From Candidatus Omnitrophota bacterium (GTDB lineage: Bacteria; Omnitrophota; Gorgyraeia; Duberdicusellales; 4484-171), in contig WJJJ01000025.1 of the NCBI GenBank assembly GCA_014729775.1, forward strand, positions 53,790 through 117,789: a stretch of DNA of 64,000 bases, in the 5' to 3' direction. Under the pieces are notes generated by a model. The model worked only from the letters and a program-made list of their open reading frames with translations. It made no database searches and was not told the origin of the DNA. Shown here piece by piece: positions 12,028 to 54,860 of the stretch. A program made the position numbers and the translations under genes. Every line of letters starts with the position of its first letter. Position 1 is the stretch's first letter.

Positions 12028-12851
12028 GAAAAAAAACGACGTGTATCGCATTGGTGGTATGTCTGTGCAGTGCCTGCGGGGGCGCCCCTGTCCTGGCGGA
12101 TGCGCCGCCGATGCCCGATGTGTCTCTTTCCGGCACGGAAGAAGAGTTTTCCCAGAAGCGCTCGGAACATTTCATCGTCTATTACGATCCGGAAGTCAGC
12201 GAAGCGGCCGCGCGCAAAATCAGCGCGATGGCCGAACGGTATTACCGTTCCATTACCCAGGAGTTCCGGCTGATTCGGGAAGATCTTTGGCTGTGGGATA
12301 ACCGGGCGCGAATTTACGTGGCGAAAGACCGGGGAGAATATCTGCGCAGATTCCGCTGTCAGCAGTGGTCGGCGGCCTGCGTGGATTACCGCTCAAAGAA
12401 GATTTTCACTTATCCGTCACAAAATGATTTTTCGGGATTGCTGCTGCATGAGTTAACCCACATTATATTCCGGGAGTACGTCGGACACCGGCGTCTGCCT
12501 TTATGGATCGATGAAGGCGTGGCTACGTACATGGAATACAAAAATTCTCCCTCCGGAGACCGGCTGCTGCGAATGACAGAGGAGATGGTACGGGAAGACG
12601 CCTATATTCCTTTCCGCCGGATCCAGGCGATGTCGCGCCTGAGTAAGTCCGGTCGGGCAGCGCGCCGATTTTATGCGCAGTCCTACAGCATGATCGTGTT
12701 CCTCCGTCAATTTGGAAGTCATTATTTTAAGCCTTTCCTTTCCGCCCTGAAACGGGGCGAATCAGTCGGTGATTCATTAGGAAGTTCCTACCGCTCGTTA
12801 CGGTCGATCGAACAATTTGAAAAAGCATGGAAGAGACATTACCAAAAGTAA
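12024..12851 (+). CDS. secreted/lipoprotein gluzincin-like putative metallopeptidase (Peptidase_MA_2-like)
   Basis: Signal peptide with Cys-rich lipobox-like 'LCSACGG'. 'HELTH' zinc motif followed by 'EGVATYMEY' (third-ligand Glu pattern of Peptidase_MA_2). ATGA overlap with the murG stop. Confidence 0.55.
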   Translation: MRKKTTCIALVVCLCSACGGAPVLADAPPMPDVSLSGTEEEFSQKRSEHFIVYYDPEVSEAAARKISAMAERYYRSITQEFRLIREDLWLWDNRARIYVAKDRGEYLRRFRCQQWSAACVDYRSKKIFTYPSQNDFSGLLLHELTHIIFREYVGHRRLPLWIDEGVATYMEYKNSPSGDRLLRMTEEMVREDAYIPFRRIQAMSRLSKSGRAARRFYAQSYSMIVFLRQFGSHYFKPFLSALKRGESVGDSLGSSYRSLRSIEQFEKAWKRHYQK

Positions 12852-14203
12852 CCAATGTGCATCTGGTTGGGATAGGCGGGATCGGCATGAGCGCGCTCGC
12901 TTTTCTCCTACGCGAAAAGGGGATCGGCGTTTCAGGCTCGGATCTCCGGGACAACCCTACGGTCAACGAATTGCGGAAATCCGGGATCAAGGTGTATATC
13001 GGACACCGCCCTGAACACATTACGCATGCGGATCTGGTGTGTATTTCCTCTGCCGTCGGAGTTTCCAATCCAGAAGTCCGCGCGGCGCGTTCCCGGGGAG
13101 TTCCGGTCTGGCCGCGGGCGCGGATGTTAGCCGCGCTTGCCGCCGGATGTAAATCGATCTGCGTGAGCGGAGCTCACGGAAAGACGACGACCACCTCGCT
13201 CCTGGGGTTTGTGCTTTCCCAGCTCGGGTTTGCGCCCACAGTGTGTATCGGCGGGGTGCCTCTCAATTTTTCACGGCATGCGTGGTGGGGGAAGGATTAT
13301 TTCGTGATCGAAGCGGACGAAAGCGACGGGAGCTTTCTTTACTACACGCCGGAGTTTTCGGTTCTCACCAACATCGATACCGAGCATCTCGAATATTACG
13401 GTACGCCCGCCCGCCTGCGGGAGGCATTCAAAAAGTTTGCCGCCAATACCAAACACACGGTGGTCGCCTGCGCCGAGGATCCGCAGGTGCGCGCCGTGAC
13501 CGAATCCGTAACACATTGCTGGTACGGGTTCGATTCTTCTTTACCTGTACACGCCCGGGATGTGCGCTGTGAAGAAAGGGGCATGCGTTTTACCGCGTCG
13601 GTACATTCTCAGGAATTCGACGTATTTCTTCCCCTGGTGGGAGCACATAACGTGCTGAACGCGCTCGCGGTCTTTTCGGTGTGTTCGTTGCTTTGCGCCG
13701 CGCCCCGGAAAGTGACTCATGCCGTTCGTGAATTCAAAGGAACTCATCGCCGCTTTCAGTTCAAAGCGCAGGTCGGCGGGGTGACCTTTATCGATGATTA
13801 TGCCCATCATCCCACCGAGATCCGGGCGGTACTGCAGGCACTGAAATATCTTCCGGCGAAACGCCGCTGGGTAATATTTGAACCGCACCGGTTTACCAGG
13901 GTGAAACGTCTCGCCGACGAATTCGCGGAATGCTTTGCCGGTGCCGATACTCTTATCCTTACCGATATTTATTCGGCCGCCGAAGCCCCTCTTCCTGGAG
14001 CGACGGTAGAGGACCTTTTCCGGCGGATCCGGCGCGGATATGACGGGCAGTTGTACTATGTCCCTAAACATGAACTGGCGGGGATGCTCGGCGGGCGGGT
14101 ACGGTCCGGCGATGTGATCCTCGGTTTGGGGGCGGGGGAGATCAGCGAATTGATGGAGAAGATCATAGATGAATTCCGATTACGGCACGATACTGCTGGA
14201 TGA
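12827..14203 (+). CDS. murC: UDP-N-acetylmuramate--L-alanine ligase
   Basis: N-terminal 'VHLVGIGGIGMSALA' and 'GAHGKTTTTS' P-loop; 458 aa. Confidence 0.93.
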   Translation: MEETLPKVTNVHLVGIGGIGMSALAFLLREKGIGVSGSDLRDNPTVNELRKSGIKVYIGHRPEHITHADLVCISSAVGVSNPEVRAARSRGVPVWPRARMLAALAAGCKSICVSGAHGKTTTTSLLGFVLSQLGFAPTVCIGGVPLNFSRHAWWGKDYFVIEADESDGSFLYYTPEFSVLTNIDTEHLEYYGTPARLREAFKKFAANTKHTVVACAEDPQVRAVTESVTHCWYGFDSSLPVHARDVRCEERGMRFTASVHSQEFDVFLPLVGAHNVLNALAVFSVCSLLCAAPRKVTHAVREFKGTHRRFQFKAQVGGVTFIDDYAHHPTEIRAVLQALKYLPAKRRWVIFEPHRFTRVKRLADEFAECFAGADTLILTDIYSAAEAPLPGATVEDLFRRIRRGYDGQLYYVPKHELAGMLGGRVRSGDVILGLGAGEISELMEKIIDEFRLRHDTAG

Positions 14204-15029
14204 ACCTCTTGCTTCCTATACGACGCTGAAAATAGGAGGGCCGTCGGCCCGTCTTTTTTTTGCGGCTTCCGAGGAGGAATTGAGCAAGATCCTTACCAGC
14301 TTCAGGGAAGAACCGCTGATATTGGGCGCGGGTTCCAATCTTTTGATCAGCGACCGCGGTACGCACAGACCGGTGATCAAACTTACCGGTCATATGCGGA
14401 CAGTTTCCCGGCAGGGGAATATTATCAGCGCGGGAGCGGGCGTCAGATTGCCCGAACTGCTGAGATTTTGCATCGCGCATCGGTTAACCGGCTTGGAACC
14501 GTTCGCCGGAATCCCGGGATCACTCGGAGGGATGGTCAAAATGAACGCGTCGGCGCACGGGTGCGCGGTGAGCGATTATGTGACGCAGATCGAAGCTTTT
14601 ACCCGCCGGGGCAGGCACGAGGTCATCCCCGCGGAACGGCTCGATTTTCGCCGGCGTCATTGCGCGCTTAGCGGAGCGGTTATCACCCGGGTGAAACTGT
14701 GTGTGCGTCCCGCGAATAAGGATATCCGCGGACGAATCAGGGCGGTTGTGCAACGGCGTCTGCGTACGCAGGATTATCGTTATCCTTCCTGCGGCTGTGT
14801 ATTTCGCAATCCTTCCACCGCGCCGGCGGGAAAGCTTATCGATGAGTGCGGATTAAAAGGACTTCGCCGCGGAGGGGCATTGATTTCTCCGGTCCACGCA
14901 AATTTTATCGTCAACACGGGCGGTGCCCGTTATGCTGATGTTGATTTTCTCATCAGTCAGATCCGTCGCAAAGTGTATGACCGGTTCCGTGTCCGGCTAA
15001 AAGAGGAAGTCACTCGTTGGTCCTCGTGA
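14169..15029 (+). CDS. murB: UDP-N-acetylenolpyruvoylglucosamine reductase
   Basis: 'LASYTTLKIGGPS' FAD-binding N-terminus; 'GSNLLISD'; 286 aa. Confidence 0.9.
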   Translation: MNSDYGTILLDEPLASYTTLKIGGPSARLFFAASEEELSKILTSFREEPLILGAGSNLLISDRGTHRPVIKLTGHMRTVSRQGNIISAGAGVRLPELLRFCIAHRLTGLEPFAGIPGSLGGMVKMNASAHGCAVSDYVTQIEAFTRRGRHEVIPAERLDFRRRHCALSGAVITRVKLCVRPANKDIRGRIRAVVQRRLRTQDYRYPSCGCVFRNPSTAPAGKLIDECGLKGLRRGGALISPVHANFIVNTGGARYADVDFLISQIRRKVYDRFRVRLKEEVTRWSS

Positions 15030-15110
15030 AATCCGCGTGTTTACGGATATCTCTGAAAAGAAGTGAGGTTTCTCCTGTAAACCCCGGAAAAATTTGTTAT
15101 AATAACAACG

Positions 15111-16100
15111 ATGCCTGAACGCAAATCGAAGTCCGGTCGCGGCCAATGCCGGGTCGGGGTATTAGGAGGAGGAATATCTTCGGAAAGGGAGATCTCACTG
15201 CTTTCAGCCCGCTCCGTGACCGATGCGTTGAATCGGTGCAGGATCCCGGCAGTAATGATCGACGTTGATTCTTCGGATCCTGAGCGAATGCGAAACCTGC
15301 TCCGGAAGGACGGGATCGGTTTCGTGTTTATCGCTCTCCACGGAGAATACGGGGAGGACGGGCAGGTTCAGCGGCTTCTTGGTCAGGAGAAAATGAGGTA
15401 TACCGGATCCTCTCCCTCCGCCAGCGCCCGGGCAATGGATAAGGTGTGCGCGAAGGAAGTGTTTCAACAGCACGGCATTTATACGCCGCGGGGACGGGTA
15501 TGCGGAGACGCTGATGATATCGGCGTGTATCCCGAATTCCCCTGCGTGGTGAAGCCGTCCCGGTCCGGTTCCAGTATCGGAGTGGAAATAGTGGAAGAAC
15601 CCCGCGGCCTTCGTCCTGCAGTGGAGCGGGCGGCCGCGATTCAGAAACCGGTGCTGATCGAAGAATACGTTCCGGGCCGCGAAGTGACCGTGGGGATTTT
15701 GGGTAACCAGGCATTATCCGTCATCGAAATAATTCCCCGGCAGCGATACTATGATTACCGGGCGAAGTATTGCGATGAAGCAACGCGTTTCCGCCACGCA
15801 ACGGACCTGGAACCTGAGCGCTACCGGGAGATCCAGGATATCGGGCTGAAGGCACATCGCGTGCTGGGATGCCGGGGATTTTCACGGGTGGACGTCCGCC
15901 TCACCAACGAAAAAATACCTTACGTCCTGGAAGTGAATTCTATTCCGGGATTTACTTCTCATAGTTTATTGCCGTTGTCGGCAAAATATTCCGGTATTGA
16001 TTTTGATGAGCTGGTAGTACAGATACTCAACCAAGCAGGATATGGCAAGGAAACGTCGCAAACGAAAATCTCAGCGAAAAAAGCTCAGAATACCTCCTAA
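15111..16100 (+). CDS. ddl: D-alanine--D-alanine ligase
   Basis: ATP-grasp; 'FIALHGEYGEDGQVQ', 'EEYVPGREVTVGIL' and 'LEVNSIPG' motifs. Confidence 0.9.
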   Translation: MPERKSKSGRGQCRVGVLGGGISSEREISLLSARSVTDALNRCRIPAVMIDVDSSDPERMRNLLRKDGIGFVFIALHGEYGEDGQVQRLLGQEKMRYTGSSPSASARAMDKVCAKEVFQQHGIYTPRGRVCGDADDIGVYPEFPCVVKPSRSGSSIGVEIVEEPRGLRPAVERAAAIQKPVLIEEYVPGREVTVGILGNQALSVIEIIPRQRYYDYRAKYCDEATRFRHATDLEPERYREIQDIGLKAHRVLGCRGFSRVDVRLTNEKIPYVLEVNSIPGFTSHSLLPLSAKYSGIDFDELVVQILNQAGYGKETSQTKISAKKAQNTS

Positions 16101-16800
16101 AATATTTTTGTGGACGGGGATCGGCATAGGCATTCTCGCGACCATTATCGTGATCGGCCGCGCCGTATACAAATCCGATGCGTTCCTCATCACCAGAGTG
16201 GTAGTCGATGAGCCTCTGGACAAAAGAGTGGAGAGGGAACTTCTCGGCCGGTCTTTATTCCGGATTCCTCTCCAGGAGATCCAGCGCGATCTCATGGAGG
16301 AGTATCCGGAACTCAAGGCGATTCGGATCGTCAAGCAGTTCCCTTCGACGGTGAGCATACAGGTCCGGCCGAGGAAACCGGTTGCACAGTGGAAGACTAC
16401 CCGTTATTATCTGATGGGACGCGAAGGCGTAGTCCTGGATTCCGGACGCGATGAGCCCTATTCGGAGTATGTGGTGATTGAGACGAACGGCTACCGGGGA
16501 AGGATCTCGAAAGGAATGCAGATCGATGATCGCGCACTGCAGGGGGCGCTTTCACTCGCAGAAATCATTCAGTCGAGTTCATTCCTTCGTGAGTATACCG
16601 TGCGTACCATCAACGCTTCTCAGCTTCCGGCATTATCGTTCTCGCTCGGCGGGATCAATGTGATGGTAGGCGAAGGAGACTGGAGAAAAAAAATCGCTCT
16701 GCTGCAGACTCTTCTCGAAGAAAAAATACGGGAAAATCTTTCCGCGGTGAAGTATATCGATTTACGCTACCAGAAGGTATATGTTGGTTACAAACGATGA
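16042..16800 (+). CDS. ftsQ: cell division protein FtsQ (POTRA-containing)
   Basis: Basic N-terminus, single TM ('IFLWTGIGIGILATIIVIG'), POTRA-like region; located after ddl. Confidence 0.75.
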   Translation: MARKRRKRKSQRKKLRIPPKIFLWTGIGIGILATIIVIGRAVYKSDAFLITRVVVDEPLDKRVERELLGRSLFRIPLQEIQRDLMEEYPELKAIRIVKQFPSTVSIQVRPRKPVAQWKTTRYYLMGREGVVLDSGRDEPYSEYVVIETNGYRGRISKGMQIDDRALQGALSLAEIIQSSSFLREYTVRTINASQLPALSFSLGGINVMVGEGDWRKKIALLQTLLEEKIRENLSAVKYIDLRYQKVYVGYKR

Positions 16801-16815
16801 GAGCCCGCTAGTACG

Positions 16816-17988
16816 ATGTTTCGGCTGACGAATGGCGTATGCGGAATGGAAGTCGCTGACGACAGGACTTTTTTCTCCTATGCATCGGCGTCGGGAAAAA
16901 ATATGCATGTGATTGAGGAATCATGGGTGCCCGTTCCTTTTTCCGGGGACGATCTTGTCGCACATTTCAAAGAGAACTTCAATCTTTTCGCTGCCGAATT
17001 ACAGCACAAAGAAAAAAAACACCGGTTAAAGATCCGGCGTCTTTTTGTCAATCTGCCCGCCCGGTTTACGCGTGTTTCCACTGTCGAACACACCGTTTCT
17101 TTTCGTCGTGAAAAGAAAATTTCGATCCGTGATGTGCTTTCCGCCAAACAGTACGTGGAAGAATCCGCCTCGGAGTGGGGCGAATGCTGTCTGCATCATG
17201 TTGTCGAGCGTTACTGGGTAAACGGCGGGGAGAGTTTTTCTCCGCCGGTGGGAACATGGAGCGGGAAAATAAGACTGCGTTGTCGTCTTATTTGGGTGAG
17301 AAACAATGTGTGGGCGGAGCTCAATGAAATCGCGACGCACTTTCATACTCGTCTCGGCGGAGTGATTGCCGAGGAAATGAGCGTGTTGTCTTCAAGCGGA
17401 GACGCGAGCGGAATACTCCCTGAAAAAGCCGTGCTCAAAATCGGTTATCATGATACCGTCTTTCTCTACTGGCGGAAAAAAAAGGTGATCTCCGAAAGGA
17501 GGTTTCCGTTCGGACTGCGGGGAATTTTTTGCCGGATGGCGGAACGGTTCAGTCTGTCTCTGCCGGTCGCGGAACAGGTTTTTCACCGTTATTTTTCTTT
17601 GAAGCCCGAAGTCGTTCGCTCTTCGCGCCGGCTCGGGGAAGTAAGCGTGAAGAGCGGTGATGCCTACGTCAATCTCAGTGTAGGCGCGGTCAACCGCTTC
17701 CTGCGCGAAGTCATTCACCGGGAGTTGGAGCGGATCCTCGATGAATGTATTCCGGAGATCGGCGGAGATCGCACGTCAGTGACGGTAACAGGCAGACTGA
17801 ACGGGCGGGAAGGATGGGCCCGTTTTTTGAGAGAGCACTTCGCAAGGCCGGTGCTGGCGGCTTCCGCCCGGGAAAGCGCGGCTTTCGGCGCGTCCCGGTA
17901 CGGATTATTTCCTTGTTTAGATCGTGAAACCGTGCCTCAAAAAAAATTTTTTCGGCGCATATCGGAACTGTACCGTGAATACTTTTAA
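16816..17988 (+). CDS. degenerate FtsA-like actin-fold protein (position of ftsA)
   Basis: 390 aa at the ftsA slot. C-terminal 'SVTVTGRLNGREGWARFLREHFARPV' resembles the FtsA phosphate-2/connect-2 'VLTGGGA...' block, but the N-terminal phosphate-1 'DIGT' motif is not recognisable. Confidence 0.45.
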   Translation: MFRLTNGVCGMEVADDRTFFSYASASGKNMHVIEESWVPVPFSGDDLVAHFKENFNLFAAELQHKEKKHRLKIRRLFVNLPARFTRVSTVEHTVSFRREKKISIRDVLSAKQYVEESASEWGECCLHHVVERYWVNGGESFSPPVGTWSGKIRLRCRLIWVRNNVWAELNEIATHFHTRLGGVIAEEMSVLSSSGDASGILPEKAVLKIGYHDTVFLYWRKKKVISERRFPFGLRGIFCRMAERFSLSLPVAEQVFHRYFSLKPEVVRSSRRLGEVSVKSGDAYVNLSVGAVNRFLREVIHRELERILDECIPEIGGDRTSVTVTGRLNGREGWARFLREHFARPVLAASARESAAFGASRYGLFPCLDRETVPQKKFFRRISELYREYF

Positions 17989-18005: not shown

Positions 18006-19937
18006 ATGAAATACCTCGAACAGATTGAACAATTTCTGAAAATGCTGAAAATCGGACTCACCCACGCGAGCATGTACTTTACCGAGCATCCGATCTATCA
18101 AAAAACCGTTCGGGAAGTGCACAGGGAGCTTCAGCAGGTACTGCGTGAAAAGAACCCTCTTCTCATCGGAGTCTCGCCCGATGCGCTGATCATCGACAAT
18201 CATGAATGGAAGAATTCCCGATTAACCGAGGATCTGGCGGTTTTTTTTCATACCCGCATGGTGAGCCGGATCGAATTCGTCGACGGAATAACAGAACAGG
18301 AGCTCCACACCTTTCTCTCGTATGTCTCCCTTTCGGCGCAGGAAATTTTAAGCCTGGGCGGCCTCGGAAAAATCTTCGAGGAAAAACAAGTCGCTCACGT
18401 CCATGTGTCTGATCTCGATTATTCTCACCTGCTGAAAAATGCGGGAGTGTACCATAAAGATATTTGGAAATATCTGCTCCGCAGCGCGGCCCGGAGCCAG
18501 AAGGACGAAGAAATGAAGGCGCTGATCGATAATTTTGAAACCGTCGTGAGTTCCCTCGGAAAGGAATTATTTCAAGAAGCAGAGTGCCGGGCTCAGCTCC
18601 GGGTTTTTTTGACGCACTTAAGCAAGAGTCAAAAAAGTACGTTAAAACAGTGCAGTAAGACCATCCTTCAGTATCTTTTGAGAGACCGCGATGCGGTTGA
18701 GGGTAAAATCCCGGTTGAGGATCTCCGAAATTTTCTCACCGTATTGTCGGATGCTGAATCAGCGGATATCCTGTGGGATGAGATCGCAAAAGGTCCTGAT
18801 TTTGATGCGAGTGCTTTTTCGTTCTTTCTGACCCTCTTGAGTTCGAAAAATCACGAGATTATCGCGGACAAAGTGCTGCACCGTTTGGATTCGGTGTCGA
18901 CCGAGAAAAAGCATCAAATGAAGTCCAGACTCGAAGATTTGTTTTCAACCGCGTTTTCTTCCGGCCCGCGGGAAGCCAGCCAGGTGTATCAGGAAGCGTT
19001 GTCCGCGATGTTTGAGGCGATGTCCGATGAGGGGCGATGGGTGTTTGACCGCGAGAATGCGCGCAAGAACTACCGGTATATTCTGCTGGCGCTGCTCGAT
19101 GAGAAAAAAAAATCCGAACAGATGCGGCGGATCGCGGAGAAGATTTCCGCGGAGACGATACACGCATTCGAAATTCGCGACCGCGGATATCTGGCGGCCT
19201 GTTTCTCTCTGCTCAAAAGGAAAGACGATTCCTTTCGGTCTGAACTGCAGGAAGGGCTGCGCGGGCTCGATGAATTCCTGGAAACAAAAGTGCTCCAAGG
19301 AGAGTATCCTTCCGGAATGGAACGCTATCTTTCCCGGCTAAAAAAAAGTTCCTATGGTCCGCGGACATACATTCAGAAAATCACCCAGGCTTCTTCTGTG
19401 TCCCCCGCGCTGCTCGATGCGTTTCTCCGCTTTTATCCGGGCGAGACCGGGAGACTGCTGGAAGAAGTGAAGACTCGGCAGGCACAGGCTTCTTACATGA
19501 CTTCGCTGGCGGAATCGGCCGCGGCGGCGGATTCCCCTTCGAGCCTGCGTATGCTGTGCGGGCTTTACCGCGATGCGCGGCTCTATCTGCGGCGGGTGAT
19601 TCTCCGGGTGATGCGCCGAATGAAACAATACGATATTGATTTTCTCTTTGAGGTTCTTTCTGGTTCAGAAGTTTTTCTCAAACGGGAGGCGCTGGCGATA
19701 CTTGCAGGTATACCCGGCGCGCGGGCACGCGCCGCGGAGATTTTATTTCGCGTCCCGAATCCGTTTGGTATCCGGGAGAATCTCCTCAGTTCCCATATCG
19801 CGCTCGCCGATGAATTTTCGCTTTCCGAGGCCCGGCCTTACCTGGAAAAATTATCGGGCCAGCTGTGGTTCTGGCATAATAAAACGAAACGGCACGCGCA
19901 GGAAGTGCTGCGTAAATGGCATGAAAAATCAGATTGA
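18006..19937 (+). CDS. hypothetical protein: HD-GYP-associated N-terminal (DUF3391-like) domain + long alpha-helical/HEAT-like C-terminus, no catalytic domain
   Basis: First ~130 aa align with the N-terminus of the downstream HD-GYP protein ('MYFTEHPIYQKTVREVHRELQQVL' vs 'MYTPEHKRFIEAVDGAYMELQKIL'; 'RIEFVDGITEQELHTF' vs 'KITFVRGVDKDELASA'). The remainder is helical, with 'ALAILAGIPGARARAAEILF' HEAT-like repeats. Confidence 0.6.
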   Translation: MKYLEQIEQFLKMLKIGLTHASMYFTEHPIYQKTVREVHRELQQVLREKNPLLIGVSPDALIIDNHEWKNSRLTEDLAVFFHTRMVSRIEFVDGITEQELHTFLSYVSLSAQEILSLGGLGKIFEEKQVAHVHVSDLDYSHLLKNAGVYHKDIWKYLLRSAARSQKDEEMKALIDNFETVVSSLGKELFQEAECRAQLRVFLTHLSKSQKSTLKQCSKTILQYLLRDRDAVEGKIPVEDLRNFLTVLSDAESADILWDEIAKGPDFDASAFSFFLTLLSSKNHEIIADKVLHRLDSVSTEKKHQMKSRLEDLFSTAFSSGPREASQVYQEALSAMFEAMSDEGRWVFDRENARKNYRYILLALLDEKKKSEQMRRIAEKISAETIHAFEIRDRGYLAACFSLLKRKDDSFRSELQEGLRGLDEFLETKVLQGEYPSGMERYLSRLKKSSYGPRTYIQKITQASSVSPALLDAFLRFYPGETGRLLEEVKTRQAQASYMTSLAESAAAADSPSSLRMLCGLYRDARLYLRRVILRVMRRMKQYDIDFLFEVLSGSEVFLKREALAILAGIPGARARAAEILFRVPNPFGIRENLLSSHIALADEFSLSEARPYLEKLSGQLWFWHNKTKRHAQEVLRKWHEKSD

Positions 19938-21243
19938 AAAATTCGTCAGAAGTATCTTCGCCGTGTTCCAGATCACGCAGATGTACACGCCGGAGCATAA
20001 AAGATTCATTGAGGCGGTGGATGGCGCGTACATGGAGCTGCAGAAAATTCTGCAGACCAGAGAGGACGTGACGGTAGGCATCGTGGGCGAGGAATTTACT
20101 ACAGGTGACGTAATACTGTTTGATCTGAGCAAAAAAACGAAGTCGTTTATCGTTTTTTTGAAAGACCGGGGCATTGAAAAGATCACTTTTGTCAGGGGTG
20201 TTGACAAAGATGAACTGGCGTCAGCGATCACGGCGATCTTCACCGTCGATCCTCATTCCGAAGCGGATATGCAAAAGGTGCTGGTTACGGAGGGGATTAC
20301 TCACATTAAAACGGGTACGATCAGCGCACCGCGTGATGAAGGGAAAAAGGTGTTTGCCCAGGAATACCATAACGCGTTGGAATCGGTCCGCAGCGCCCTG
20401 GGCAACATGCTTGAAGGCAAGGAGGTGAATGCGCTGGATCTGAAGTATTCGCTCGCCCATTTCGCGGAAAATATTCAGGTATGGCACAAGGAGTTTCGCA
20501 GGCTCCTGGCGGTCAAACAGCATGATCTGGGTACATTTTCACATATTCTCAATGTCGCGATCCTTTCGGTGTACTTTTCGGCCTGTCTCGGCTTTCGAAA
20601 GAATGACATGACCGAAATCGGAATTGCCGCACTGTTTCATGATATCGGCAAACAGTATATCTCGCGGTATATCATCAAGAAAACCCGCCGACTCACCGAT
20701 GAGGAATTCAAACAAATACAAAGTCACACCGTGCTGGGAGCAAACCTCCTCCTTCCTTATGAACCGGTGCTGGGTTTTCTCCCGGTCGTCGTCTGTTTCG
20801 AACATCATTTAGGGTATGACCGGCAGGGCTATCCCCGAACGCCGTACAACCGGCATCCGCATATCGCCTCTCAAATCGTGACGATATGCGATGTGTATGA
20901 CGCGCTGATGCAGAGACGGTCTTATAAGCGGGATTATCCTCCCCGATTTATTTACGATCTTATGATGCGCGATAAGGGACGGCAATTTCACCCGCTGCTC
21001 ATAGAGAAATTTTTTCAGTTCATGGGAATTTGGGCGGTGGGCACGATCGTGGAACTGAATGATAAGCGTGTCGGGATCGTACGCCGGGAAAATCAGGGGG
21101 ATATCCGCTCTCCCTGGGTGCAAATAATTTCGCCGGCACCTGAAAAGGAGCTTTTGAATCTTGAAAAAGAGACGCCCCGGCTCTATATCCAGAAAGCGCT
21201 GAATCCCATGAAGGAAGGGAAGCGATACCTTTCTTTCTTGTAG
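19921..21243 (+). CDS. HD-GYP domain c-di-GMP phosphodiesterase with DUF3391-like N-terminal domain
   Basis: ATG at 19921 (17-nt overlap with the upstream gene). HD motif 'LFHDIGK', 'FEHHLGYDRQGYPRT' (HD-GYP signature), 'CDVYDALMQRRSYK'. Confidence 0.85.
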   Translation: MKNQIEKFVRSIFAVFQITQMYTPEHKRFIEAVDGAYMELQKILQTREDVTVGIVGEEFTTGDVILFDLSKKTKSFIVFLKDRGIEKITFVRGVDKDELASAITAIFTVDPHSEADMQKVLVTEGITHIKTGTISAPRDEGKKVFAQEYHNALESVRSALGNMLEGKEVNALDLKYSLAHFAENIQVWHKEFRRLLAVKQHDLGTFSHILNVAILSVYFSACLGFRKNDMTEIGIAALFHDIGKQYISRYIIKKTRRLTDEEFKQIQSHTVLGANLLLPYEPVLGFLPVVVCFEHHLGYDRQGYPRTPYNRHPHIASQIVTICDVYDALMQRRSYKRDYPPRFIYDLMMRDKGRQFHPLLIEKFFQFMGIWAVGTIVELNDKRVGIVRRENQGDIRSPWVQIISPAPEKELLNLEKETPRLYIQKALNPMKEGKRYLSFL

Positions 21244-21258
21244 AACCCGGAGAAAAGG

Positions 21259-21287
21259 TTTGCCGGGCGTACTAAATATGATATATT
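21259..21287 (+). promoter_or_regulatory. sigma70-like promoter TTTGCC-N17-TATATT placing TSS at or next to the RR start codon (leaderless candidate)
   Basis: 'tttgcc' 21259-64, 17-nt spacer, 'tatatt' 21282-87; the RR ATG is at 21295. Confidence 0.3.
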
Positions 21288-21294
21288 GTATACC

Positions 21295-21663
21295 ATGAAC
21301 GCCGCGCAAAAACCAGTGTTGGTAGTCGATGACGAAAAAGAAATCGTTGATTTCCTTGAGAAGTTCATTTCCCGGTTCGGGTATAGGGTCGAAAAGGTGA
21401 CCAGCGGGGAAGCCGCACTCGCGTTCATTGAATCGCACGGCGCACGCTGTGTGTTCTTGGACATACAAATGGGAGGGGTCGATGGTATCGAAGTACTGCG
21501 CCGGATCAAGAAAACGTATCCCGATATCACCGTAATCATGATTACCGGTAAGGCAGAAAAAGAGGTTCAGACGAAAGCAAAACGATACGGAGCCGCTACC
21601 TATATTACCAAACCCCTGGATCTGGAAGATTTGAGCCGGAGAATTAAGGAATATCTAGTATAA
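21295..21663 (+). CDS. single-domain response regulator (CheY-like)
   Basis: 'VLVVDDEKEIVDF', phospho-Asp in 'VFLDIQMGG', 'TKPL'. ATG at 21295; the track start at 21286 is TTG. Confidence 0.85.
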   Translation: MNAAQKPVLVVDDEKEIVDFLEKFISRFGYRVEKVTSGEAALAFIESHGARCVFLDIQMGGVDGIEVLRRIKKTYPDITVIMITGKAEKEVQTKAKRYGAATYITKPLDLEDLSRRIKEYLV

Positions 21664-21681
21664 CTTCAATTCGAACCCCAG

Positions 21682-22860
21682 ATGACCGTCGATTACCAGC
21701 AAGATCTCGAAAAAGCCGCGCGCCAGATGATTCTGATTCATCGCTCGAGTACTCTGACCCGGCTTATTCTGCGTACGATCGTTGCGAAAGTAAAGGTGGA
21801 ACACGCAGGCTTGTTTATATACGACAAACAGCGGGACGAATATGTGGTCAAAGTTTCCCGGGGAGCCACGGGAATGAAAATTCCTTCCGGATTCGTGAAA
21901 ATATCGCAGGAAAATTCGCTCATAAGGTATTTTCGCGAGCCTTCCCTGCCCTATCCCAAAGACAGTATTCTCTGGTCGTCCTTGAACGGATATCTCCGAT
22001 CAGCGAAACGCCGGAAGAACGAGGAATTAGTGAATTTTTTGGAAGATCTGCGGATGACCTTGTCTTTATACCAAGCCCGTGCATGCGTGCCGGGATTCTT
22101 CCGTAAGGAACTGGTCGGCGTGCTTTTTTTAGGGGAGAAGACCGATCAACAGGGACTCTCCAAGGAAGAACTGGGATATCTTTCCGTCCTCGCCTCGGAC
22201 GTCGTGATGGCGATCAAGAATGCCTGGTTGATCGAGGATCTCAATCAACAGGTCGAAGTGAATAAGCGGCTGTTCGTACAGACGGTTTCGGCGCTGGCTT
22301 CGAGCATTGAAGCGAAAGACATGTATACGATCGGCCACACTGAACGGGTCGTGGAGAAAAGTCTGGAGATCGCCCGGCAGATGCGGCGGCGCAAAAGGAT
22401 CCGGAATTGGGAATCGTTTTTGGAGAATTTGAGGGTAGCGGCGCTGCTTCACGATATCGGAAAAATCGGCATACCGGAAAAGATCCTGAATAAAAAGAAG
22501 TGGCTCAACGAAAAGGAGCGGGGCGTGATTGAAAGGCATCCTCTCATCGGAGCCAAGATCCTGCAGCAGGTGGAGGAAATGAAAGATGCGCTCTTGGGCG
22601 TAAAGCACCACCATGAACGCTACGATGGAAAAGGGTATCCTTCCGGATTGCGGGGAAAAGAAATCCCCCTTACTGCGGCGATAATCGCGGTCGCCGATTC
22701 GTTTGACGCGATGATTATCGACCGGCCGTACCGAAAGGGCCTCCGGCTCAGCGAAGCTTTGGAGGAGATCCGCAAGAACCGGGGTAAGCAGTTCGCGCCG
22801 GCCGTCGTCGATGCCTTTTTGTCCTTGTACGCGGTCCCGGCAAAAAAGAAAAGAAAATGA
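21682..22860 (+). CDS. GAF-like + HD-GYP domain protein (c-di-GMP phosphodiesterase)
   Basis: 'GHTERVVEKSLEIA', 'LLHDIGKIGIPE', 'HHHERYDGKGYPSGL', 'ADSFDAMIIDRPYRK'. Confidence 0.85.
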   Translation: MTVDYQQDLEKAARQMILIHRSSTLTRLILRTIVAKVKVEHAGLFIYDKQRDEYVVKVSRGATGMKIPSGFVKISQENSLIRYFREPSLPYPKDSILWSSLNGYLRSAKRRKNEELVNFLEDLRMTLSLYQARACVPGFFRKELVGVLFLGEKTDQQGLSKEELGYLSVLASDVVMAIKNAWLIEDLNQQVEVNKRLFVQTVSALASSIEAKDMYTIGHTERVVEKSLEIARQMRRRKRIRNWESFLENLRVAALLHDIGKIGIPEKILNKKKWLNEKERGVIERHPLIGAKILQQVEEMKDALLGVKHHHERYDGKGYPSGLRGKEIPLTAAIIAVADSFDAMIIDRPYRKGLRLSEALEEIRKNRGKQFAPAVVDAFLSLYAVPAKKKRK

Positions 22861-53726: not shown

Positions 53727-54860
53727 ATGCGCCCATTACTGTACATCCATATTCCGTTTTGCGACAGAGGCAAATGCGCTTATTGCGATTTCTACAGCGT
53801 GCCCTATGAACCCCGGCAGGCCGCGGCGCTCGTCGAAAGCTACGGGCGCGAACTCCGGATGACCACTTCTCATTTTCGCACGATTTATATCGGCGGAGGA
53901 ACCCCCTCGGTCTTATCCCGATCAGCGTGGGCGACGCTGCTCAACGCCTGCCGCCGGCACGCCTCCGGCGCGGAAGAATGGACGGTCGAGATGAATCCTG
54001 AACACGTGACCGGGACGCTGGCGCATATGCTGAAAGAGTCCGGGGTGAACCGGATCAGTCTGGGAGTACAGTCATTCTGCCGGCAGAAATTACGGTGCCT
54101 CGGCCGCAGGCATTCTCCGTCGCAAGCCGCTGAGGCGGTGAATATCGTCCGGAAGGCAGGGATCCAAAATGTCAGCATTGATTTACTGTTCGGCGTATGG
54201 GAAGAATCCCTTAAAGAATGGAGGCGGGAACTTGCCGGTGCACTCACCCTTCCCCTGACCCATCTTTCTCTCTACGCGCTGACCTATGAAAGGGATACGC
54301 TCCTTGGCCGCCGCCTTTCACGGGGGGACATTACGCCCCTCGCGGACGATATCGTGGCAGAGCAGTATCTGGCAGCCGCTGATCTCCTGCGTTCCTGCGG
54401 GTTCGTACGCTATGAGATCTCCAATTTTGCCCGGCCTGGTCGTGAATGCCTTCATAATTTGGGATATTGGCAGGGATTTCCCTATCTTGGAATCGGTCCG
54501 TCGGCGGTTTCTTTTCTGAACGGAGTTCGTATGCGCCGAACTGCGGAGGTGTCCCGTTATCTCGCGCTGGACGGAGGCGCGGCGGCCGTATGCGAGCGGG
54601 AAAAACTTCCTCCCGCGTACCGGGCCCGCGAAGCCGCCGCAGTATTGATACGAACCAGTCAGGGGATCGATTTTGCGGCTTTCCGCCGCCGCTACGGATA
54701 CGACCTTTTGAATACGACGCGGCCGGGCCTGCAGGAATTGGTAGGGGCCGGAATTCTGGAATGGACCGGCTCTCCGGCACGCCCCACCGGCGTACGGCTT
54801 ACTTCCGAAGGCTTCCTGCGTGCCGATACCGCTTCCAGTGCCCTGCTTTCACACACCTGA
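53727..54860 (+). CDS. hemW: radical SAM heme chaperone HemW (HemN-like, oxygen-independent coproporphyrinogen-III-oxidase-like)
   Basis: 'LYIHIPFCDRGKCAYCDFYS' plus 'IGGGTPS' HemW/HemN signature. ATG at 53727; the track start at 53646 overlaps the divergent gene. Confidence 0.85.
   Translation: MRPLLYIHIPFCDRGKCAYCDFYSVPYEPRQAAALVESYGRELRMTTSHFRTIYIGGGTPSVLSRSAWATLLNACRRHASGAEEWTVEMNPEHVTGTLAHMLKESGVNRISLGVQSFCRQKLRCLGRRHSPSQAAEAVNIVRKAGIQNVSIDLLFGVWEESLKEWRRELAGALTLPLTHLSLYALTYERDTLLGRRLSRGDITPLADDIVAEQYLAAADLLRSCGFVRYEISNFARPGRECLHNLGYWQGFPYLGIGPSAVSFLNGVRMRRTAEVSRYLALDGGAAAVCEREKLPPAYRAREAAAVLIRTSQGIDFAAFRRRYGYDLLNTTRPGLQELVGAGILEWTGSPARPTGVRLTSEGFLRADTASSALLSHT

Follow-up and report, generated by a model that had tools for sequence, protein, structure and literature searches.

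A conserved pair of overlapping genes encodes an HD-GYP protein and a predicted HEAT-like protein that share an undescribed N-terminal domain

We analyzed a 64,000-nucleotide (nt) stretch of DNA from a Candidatus Omnitrophota bacterium (assembly GCA_014729775.1, contig WJJJ01000025.1, forward-strand positions 53,790 to 117,789), hereafter the window. Two of its genes, here called X and Y, overlap; the first encodes a 643-amino-acid (aa) protein and the second an HD-GYP protein. X and Y share a real N-terminal domain of ~150 aa, and together they form a fixed, conserved overlapping gene pair in several phyla. We put at about even the chance that they constitute a two-gene module, in which Y is the phosphodiesterase and X is its non-catalytic paralogous partner, a scaffold or regulator that pairs with Y or senses alongside it through the shared domain. 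The features of the pair, in window coordinates, are as follows.

18006..19937, plus strand: gene X, an ATG-initiated open reading frame (ORF) of 643 aa with the new N-terminal domain and a predicted HEAT-like alpha-solenoid, without a catalytic motif
18006..18455, plus strand: shared N-terminal domain of X (aa 1-150), a predicted helical hairpin (aa 3-48) followed by a mixed beta/alpha part
18414..18467, plus strand: hinge motif of X, joining N-domain and solenoid: (E)LDYSxLL...D(I/V)W (aa 137-154)
18456..19934, plus strand: predicted HEAT-like solenoid of X, all-helical (aa ~151-643)
19921..19937, plus strand: 17-nt overlap between the end of X and the start of Y, with the ATG of Y inside the TGG-CAT-GAA codons that end X
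19921..21243, plus strand: gene Y, a predicted HD-GYP phosphodiesterase of 440 aa with HD_5 and HD matches and the same N-terminal domain as X
19921..20355, plus strand: shared N-terminal domain of Y (aa 1-145), placed by BLASTP, profile searches and hhalign
20488..21030, plus strand: HD-GYP catalytic domain of Y (aa ~190-370), placed by alignment to PmGH (PDB 4MCW)
21031..21240, plus strand: C-terminal extension of Y (aa ~371-440), with a family-conserved GxWxxGxxVxL...V...N motif

A first-pass annotation of the window had noticed by eye that the first ~130 aa of X resemble the N-terminus of Y. This similarity is significant by BLASTP, profile searches and hhalign, and extends over ~150 aa. 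BLASTP aligned the two N-termini at 25% identity over 108 aa (E = 6e-8). A profile of nine Y-family N-termini matched window X at E = 2.1e-18, and the reciprocal profile of 74 X-family N-termini matched window Y at E = 3.9e-11. Comparison of the X family with the Y family by hhalign gave a probability of 97.3% and E = 2.3e-11 over 151 columns (X 4-156, Y 2-145). The sequence blocks originally aligned by eye were all found, including ...ASMYFTEHP in X with ...TQMYTPEHK in Y, and SRIEFVDGITEQEL with EKITFVRGVDKDEL. In a joint alignment of both families H28 was invariant, and Y24, R84, E99 and L100 were conserved in at least 90% of sequences.

Modeled separately, the domain reached a predicted local distance difference test (pLDDT) score of 91.7 and a predicted template modeling (pTM) score of 0.85. 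The predicted order of helices (H) and strands (E) was H3-23, H29-48, E52-56, E61-63, E66-68, H72-83, E86-91, H97-107, two short helices and E132-136. No whole-domain structural neighbor of the shared domain was found in the PDB, and the N-terminal part of Y matched no Pfam model in nine Y-family members and no PDB sequence.

The shared region had initially been assigned to DUF3391 (PF11871), which would make X an orphan protein onto which that domain had escaped from HD-GYP proteins. One short segment, LAxxFHxRKIKxIEF in X and FLKDRGIEKITF in Y, does resemble the 'LLKRKGIKNITI' stretch of locus L015, an HD-GYP protein that served as our positive control and matched PF11871 weakly (E = 0.0034). 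However, PF11871 matched neither X nor Y at E ≤ 0.1, nor any of nine Y-family members (Y and eight homologues) even at E ≤ 10, and hhalign related L015 to the new domain profile with a probability of only 5.7%, indicating no relation. DUF3391 in Bd1817 (3TM8) has four beta-strands at its start, then two long helices and an S-helix (preprint 10.1101/2021.11.05.467447), unlike the new domain, which is predicted to open with a long helical hairpin. Furthermore, 3TM8 matched the Y family profile only at positions 175-283, in the HD region. The PF11871 scans, the L015 comparison, the fold order and the confinement of the 3TM8 match to the HD region together rule out DUF3391 as the identity of the shared domain; the notion of an escaped DUF3391 is largely refuted by the same evidence, and we consider it most improbable. 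Given these mismatches with DUF3391 and with solved structures, we conclude that the domain is undescribed in Pfam-A and NCBIfam and is without a whole-domain relative among solved structures.

X had been described as an orphan, yet its family is large, uniform in length and paired with Y-type genes. An exhaustive HMMER search recovered 621 cluster representatives at E ≤ 1e-3 and 222 at E ≤ 1e-30. Almost all of the 150 homologues listed were 635-650 aa long, aligned from about residue 5 to about residue 640, and shared 24-34% identity with X. Orthologues of 640-644 aa located beside Y homologues were collinear with X from end to end, almost without gaps. These full-length collinear alignments rule out the possibility, raised in the first-pass annotation, that X is a fusion or frameshift of two genes; it is one gene. 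The same family is too divergent for a word-indexed protein search, to which families at 25-30% identity are invisible: X alone returned 0 matches there and a 74-sequence profile returned 1, as opposed to the 621 found by exhaustive HMMER. No Pfam or NCBIfam model matched X, the X profile matched nothing among PDB sequences at E ≤ 1, and the public records of two family members were both labeled "hypothetical protein".

An AlphaFold2 model of full-length X, built with 74 homologues, gave a mean pLDDT of 89.9 and a pTM of 0.51. Residues 1 to ~148 are predicted to form a compact alpha/beta domain, and residues ~150-643 are modeled as helix only, in an alpha-solenoid of paired antiparallel helices with no enzyme-like fold match. 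The model thus agrees with the earlier description of X as an N-terminal domain attached to a long HEAT-like helical region that lacks an enzymatic motif. At the hinge between the two parts, L137, D138, Y139, S140, L143, D152 and W154 are conserved in at least 90% of the 74 X homologues; this LDYSxLL...D(I/V)W hinge (137-154) is the most conserved X-specific stretch, and it is absent from Y.

Y matched Pfam HD_5 and HD at 48.6 bits each, both above the cut-offs. We found 267 homologues, and the 120 listed were all 431-477 aa long, mostly ~445, and 42-48% identical to Y, the window's own protein excepted. The closest solved catalytic domain was that of PmGH (4MCW; E = 1.5e-18 with Y and 8e-30 with the Y family profile). 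The catalytic motifs FHDIGK, the HH pair, EHHLGYDRQGYP (GYP) and CDVYDAL all occur in Y and are conserved across its family. At the position of PmGH E185, Y has Gly and its homologues have G, S, N or T, so that the acidic residue of the trinuclear subclass is missing. E185 is the ligand of the third metal in PmGH; HD-GYP domains without its equivalent have binuclear centers, and the trinuclear domains are those able to convert pGpG on to guanosine monophosphate (GMP) (preprint 10.1101/2021.11.05.467447). Without the third-metal glutamate, Y therefore probably has a two-metal center and acts mainly from cyclic di-GMP (c-di-GMP) to pGpG. Judged by its motifs, Y is probably a catalytically competent, binuclear-class c-di-GMP phosphodiesterase that mainly yields pGpG. 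Its C-terminal extension of ~70 aa was covered by no Pfam model in Y or in family members.

The pairing of the two genes was recovered from either side. All six Y homologues looked up on long contigs had a gene of 640-648 aa without a Pfam match directly upstream, overlapping by 8-17 nt, and in five of five look-ups from the X side an HD/HD_5 gene of ~445-466 aa came next downstream. We then scanned metagenomes with an X pattern taken from a 19-sequence subset; because it samples only X genes carrying [VI]EELDYSQ, the scan is not a census. It returned 80 loci, with 69 full-length X genes that fell into 45 clusters at 90% identity and 16 at 50%. A Y-type gene lay directly downstream on the same strand in 68/68 loci with at least 800 nt of room, and the remaining 12 contigs ended within 422 nt of X. 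The association between X and an HD-GYP gene, for which the first-pass annotation had proposed a co-occurrence analysis, thus held at each of these loci and look-ups, with the overlap conserved. The estimated overlap in the 68 loci was 17 nt in 50, 4-19 nt in 17, and replaced by a 122-nt gap in one. Since the 17-nt value recurs in 50/68 loci (L091-L169), the junction itself appears to be under constraint. The window's own 17-nt overlap, which like the coordinates of both genes had been called correctly at the outset, follows from the ATG of Y at 19921, the start of all aligned homologues; this codon falls within the triplets that come after the C-terminal Trp conserved in X (TGG CAT GAA). Because the genes overlap, X and Y are probably made together from one mRNA.

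No third partner gene recurred in the flanks of nine Omnitrophota and seven distant loci. The flanking genes varied among genomes (RadA-like, DUF4388, permease, peptidase, GGDEF, LpxB and other genes), and therefore only the X-Y pair is conserved. In two Omnitrophota genomes a GGDEF (diguanylate cyclase) gene lay upstream of the pair: in L005 (4922-5863) as its divergent direct neighbor, and in L001 (1-949) at a distance of several genes and on the other strand; it was not conserved at other loci.

A genome scan with the Y alignment identified full-length relatives outside Omnitrophota. The same N-domain was present on a long gene that reaches up to or into the start of the HD-GYP gene in Deltaproteobacteria (metagenome-assembled genomes L008 and L011), Vicinamibacterales (L009), Thermoanaerobaculia (L014 and L044) and Gemmatimonadota (L010 and L013). 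Distant pairs of this layout are thus known from Acidobacteriota as well as from Gemmatimonadota and Deltaproteobacteria. Five distant partners that were scanned carry C-terminal Pfam HEAT_2/HEAT_PBS repeats at E values of 8e-30 to 3e-5 (HEAT_2 at 70-103 bits). One further protein, P0271, is labeled "HEAT repeat protein" and has Pfam HEAT repeats; its N-terminus aligns to X 63-143 with a probability of 94.5%, and its gene overlaps the downstream HD-GYP gene by 14 nt. In the Phycisphaerales locus L012, the upstream gene has the LYGSDHP and LASDLH hallmarks, with an hhalign match of only E = 0.0036 and 9% probability; from these motifs we regard the Planctomycetota pair as probable. The genes flanking the distant pairs were unrelated to one another. 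Two side observations concern these loci. In the P0271 pair, the HD-GYP gene is followed immediately by a convergent gene for a second, small HEAT_2 protein of 203 aa (L171, 3124-3735). The Thermoanaerobaculia Y-type proteins (L014 5647-7134 and L044 5629-7113) read HHLRYDG(Q/E)PNYP, with NYP and a one-residue insertion instead of GYP, and they may be variant or degenerate HD-GYP proteins.

In the two-gene module that we favor, X would combine the 150-aa N-domain of Y with a HEAT-like solenoid of ~490 aa that replaces the catalytic domain, and the shared domain would serve as a contact or common-input module. The N-domains of X and Y might pair, most obviously through the long helical hairpin, or they might bind the same signal. 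The X solenoid could be a docking platform that tethers, gates or targets Y, and the outcome would be c-di-GMP breakdown that is local or conditional. We count in favor of this module that the same polar residues, Y24, H28, R84 and E99, are kept in both families. Several points weigh against it. Co-occurrence gives strong support to the suggestion, made in the first-pass annotation, that the domain or X acts on or with the adjacent phosphodiesterase, but that X and Y touch, and in which direction regulation runs, is what we infer rather than observe. The invariant His, Arg, Glu and Tyr are no less compatible with a pocket for a small ligand than with an interface. The domain arrangement within the modeled X is uncertain, as the full-length pTM is only 0.51, and window X passes no Pfam HEAT threshold (best Htt_N-HEAT_1, E = 0.02, 15.7 bits against a cut-off of 31.2). 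Finally, the overlap is not obligatory, since one lineage (L087, L168) has X and Y 122 nt apart.

Invariant polar residues in both families are typical of a binding pocket, and a sensory role is the general expectation for the N-terminal domains of HD-GYP proteins (preprint 10.1101/2021.11.05.467447). The main rival explanation builds on both points: the shared N-domain would bind a signal, and X and Y would sense the same cue separately, without touching, Y responding by c-di-GMP hydrolysis and X by binding another target through its solenoid. However, strict adjacency and an overlap conserved across phyla exceed the needs of co-regulation, and no known ligand-binding fold was recognized in the shared domain; we consider parallel sensing unlikely, though worth serious attention. 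A different role for X, as an antagonist, is suggested by its possession of Y's N-domain without the catalytic domain. The active form of HD-GYP enzymes is presumed to be a dimer, which the N-terminal domain may promote (preprint 10.1101/2021.11.05.467447), and X could take the place of one HD-GYP protomer and so titrate Y into heterodimers without activity, acting as a built-in inhibitor and not as a scaffold. A simple inhibitor would not need a conserved solenoid of 490 aa with its own conserved motifs, and enzyme and inhibitor at a fixed ratio from one mRNA would be sensible only if a further signal freed the enzyme, which makes this explanation quite improbable.

The two-gene module has a stronger form, which we advance only tentatively and with some doubt. 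X and Y could be an obligate heteromeric "split" phosphodiesterase complex, in which a HEAT-repeat pseudo-subunit gates or targets the HD-GYP enzyme. The shared region would then be a new domain for pairing or sensing, without structural precedent, and the complex would extend from Omnitrophota as far as Acidobacteriota and Gemmatimonadota. If true, no dedicated non-enzymatic subunit of an HD-GYP enzyme would have been described before X.

The pair stands in a longer run of genes in the window. All on one strand, these are murC, murB, ddl, ftsQ-like, ftsA-like, X, Y, CheY, a second HD-GYP gene, an MGDG-synthase-like glycosyltransferase and a lipid A acyltransferase homologue. The immediate neighbors are as follows.

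16816-17988: ftsA-like gene, very divergent
21286..21663, plus strand: stand-alone CheY-like receiver (PF00072, 102 bits against a cut-off of 30.2)
21682..22860, plus strand: second HD-GYP protein of 392 aa (HD_5, 131 bits), N-terminus weakly GAF-like

The first-pass annotation had grouped Y with the genes after it as an HD-GYP / CheY / GAF-HD-GYP cluster. As a conserved unit this cluster did not survive comparison: CheY and the second HD-GYP gene were found behind the pair at just two loci, the window and the syntenic region of L086 (a complete Omnitrophota genome of 1.82 Mb), and in L089 and L090 the glycosyltransferase comes directly after Y. We therefore rejected the two genes as core parts; they are clade-specific additions outside the conserved pair. 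The CheY and HD-GYP assignments themselves were correct. The GAF label was not confirmed, as the GAF, GAF_2 and GAF_3 models matched the N-terminus of the second HD-GYP protein only over their last ~50 positions and below their cut-offs (E = 0.027-0.05, 14.5-15.1 bits). Its N-terminal 200 residues may be another poorly modeled sensor domain. A relative of this protein was also seen elsewhere: in several marine-sediment loci (L096, L109, L120, L135, L138 and L154-L156) an ORF of ~640-710 aa just upstream of X matched it by phmmer at 152-171 bits. A 42-nt gap separates Y from the CheY gene, and the sole plus-strand sigma-70-like site in the 16.5-24.2 kb region falls in this gap (21260-21287, TTGCCG-16-TATATT with TG). 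Such a site would fit CheY and the second HD-GYP gene being a separately inserted unit; overall, the promoter and terminator scan of this region did no better than chance.

The genes on the other side raise a further alternative, that the pair is a cell-division or envelope module coupling c-di-GMP turnover with the divisome or with the synthesis of envelope lipids. The pair directly follows murC-murB-ddl-ftsQ-ftsA-like genes in the window, L086, L089, L090 and L142; the MGDG-synthase-like glycosyltransferase and the lipid A acyltransferase homologue come after it in four of these five loci placed in the division and cell wall (dcw) cluster, but not in L142; and LpxB lies near the pair in L001, L087 and L172. 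Against this, dcw placement was seen in only 1/80 metagenome loci, and most genomes, like all the distant phyla, have unrelated flanks. A general link to the dcw cluster was rejected as confined to one clade, and we consider such a module very unlikely. The dcw-type run of the window (12827-17988) leads into X-Y at the usual place of ftsZ, and the tubulin signature GGGTG[ST]G was absent from all ORFs of at least 80 aa in the window. The dcw genes are highly conserved in Ca. Omnitrophota (PMC12283558), and ftsZ is therefore probably elsewhere in the genome. The ftsA-like protein scored 27 bits with TIGR01174 against a cut-off of 176 and matched SHS2_FTSA only at E = 0.089; the synteny of this divergent gene is kept in L086, L089, L090 and L142.

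HD-GYP proteins are the less understood class of c-di-GMP phosphodiesterases. In a census of HD-GYP proteins, most members carried undefined N-terminal regions (preprint 10.1101/2021.11.05.467447). One of these regions is now defined as a domain whose fold is predicted with confidence and to which no solved structure is related, and it occurs in two forms that are encoded together, one on an enzyme and the other on a long protein with predicted HEAT repeats. Our literature search found no HD-GYP/HEAT pair and no description of the shared domain. What is new here is the domain family and the apparently obligate partner architecture; the enzyme class, HEAT scaffolds and operon-encoded partners were already familiar. 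The pair offers a concrete, testable case of a dedicated HD-GYP protein partner. With it, a family of over 600 cluster representatives gains a context (the members we checked were labeled "hypothetical"), and new domain-family entries are merited. The carrier organisms are uncultured.

Four known systems provide points of comparison. Y shares the HD, HH, GYP, Lys and Asp residues of the reference enzyme PmGH (GAF-HD-GYP, 4MCW), but has Gly in place of E185 and a different N-terminal domain. Like Y, the Bd1817 family (DUF3391-HD-GYP, PDB 3TM8, COG2206) consists of cytoplasmic HD-GYP proteins with an uncharacterized N-terminal domain of ~120-150 aa. The N-domain of X and Y is not PF11871, whether judged by hidden Markov model, profile-profile comparison or fold order, and the X/Y pair has an apparently obligate HEAT-repeat partner gene of a kind not described for the Bd1817 family in the accessible literature. 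HD-GYP signaling of the RpfG type uses protein-protein contacts within local c-di-GMP signaling complexes, and the likeness to RpfG is that of an HD-GYP enzyme working within a protein complex and not only on the global c-di-GMP pool. For X and Y, such contacts are proposed. The partners of RpfG are GGDEF and PilZ proteins and, to our knowledge, not paralogues that share the N-domain of the enzyme. Compared with bacterial HEAT_PBS/HEAT_2 proteins such as E. coli YibA (PDB 1OYZ), X adds the 150-aa N-domain that it shares with an enzyme and the LDYSxLL hinge, and, unlike the YibA-type proteins, it was found encoded next to an HD-GYP gene throughout.

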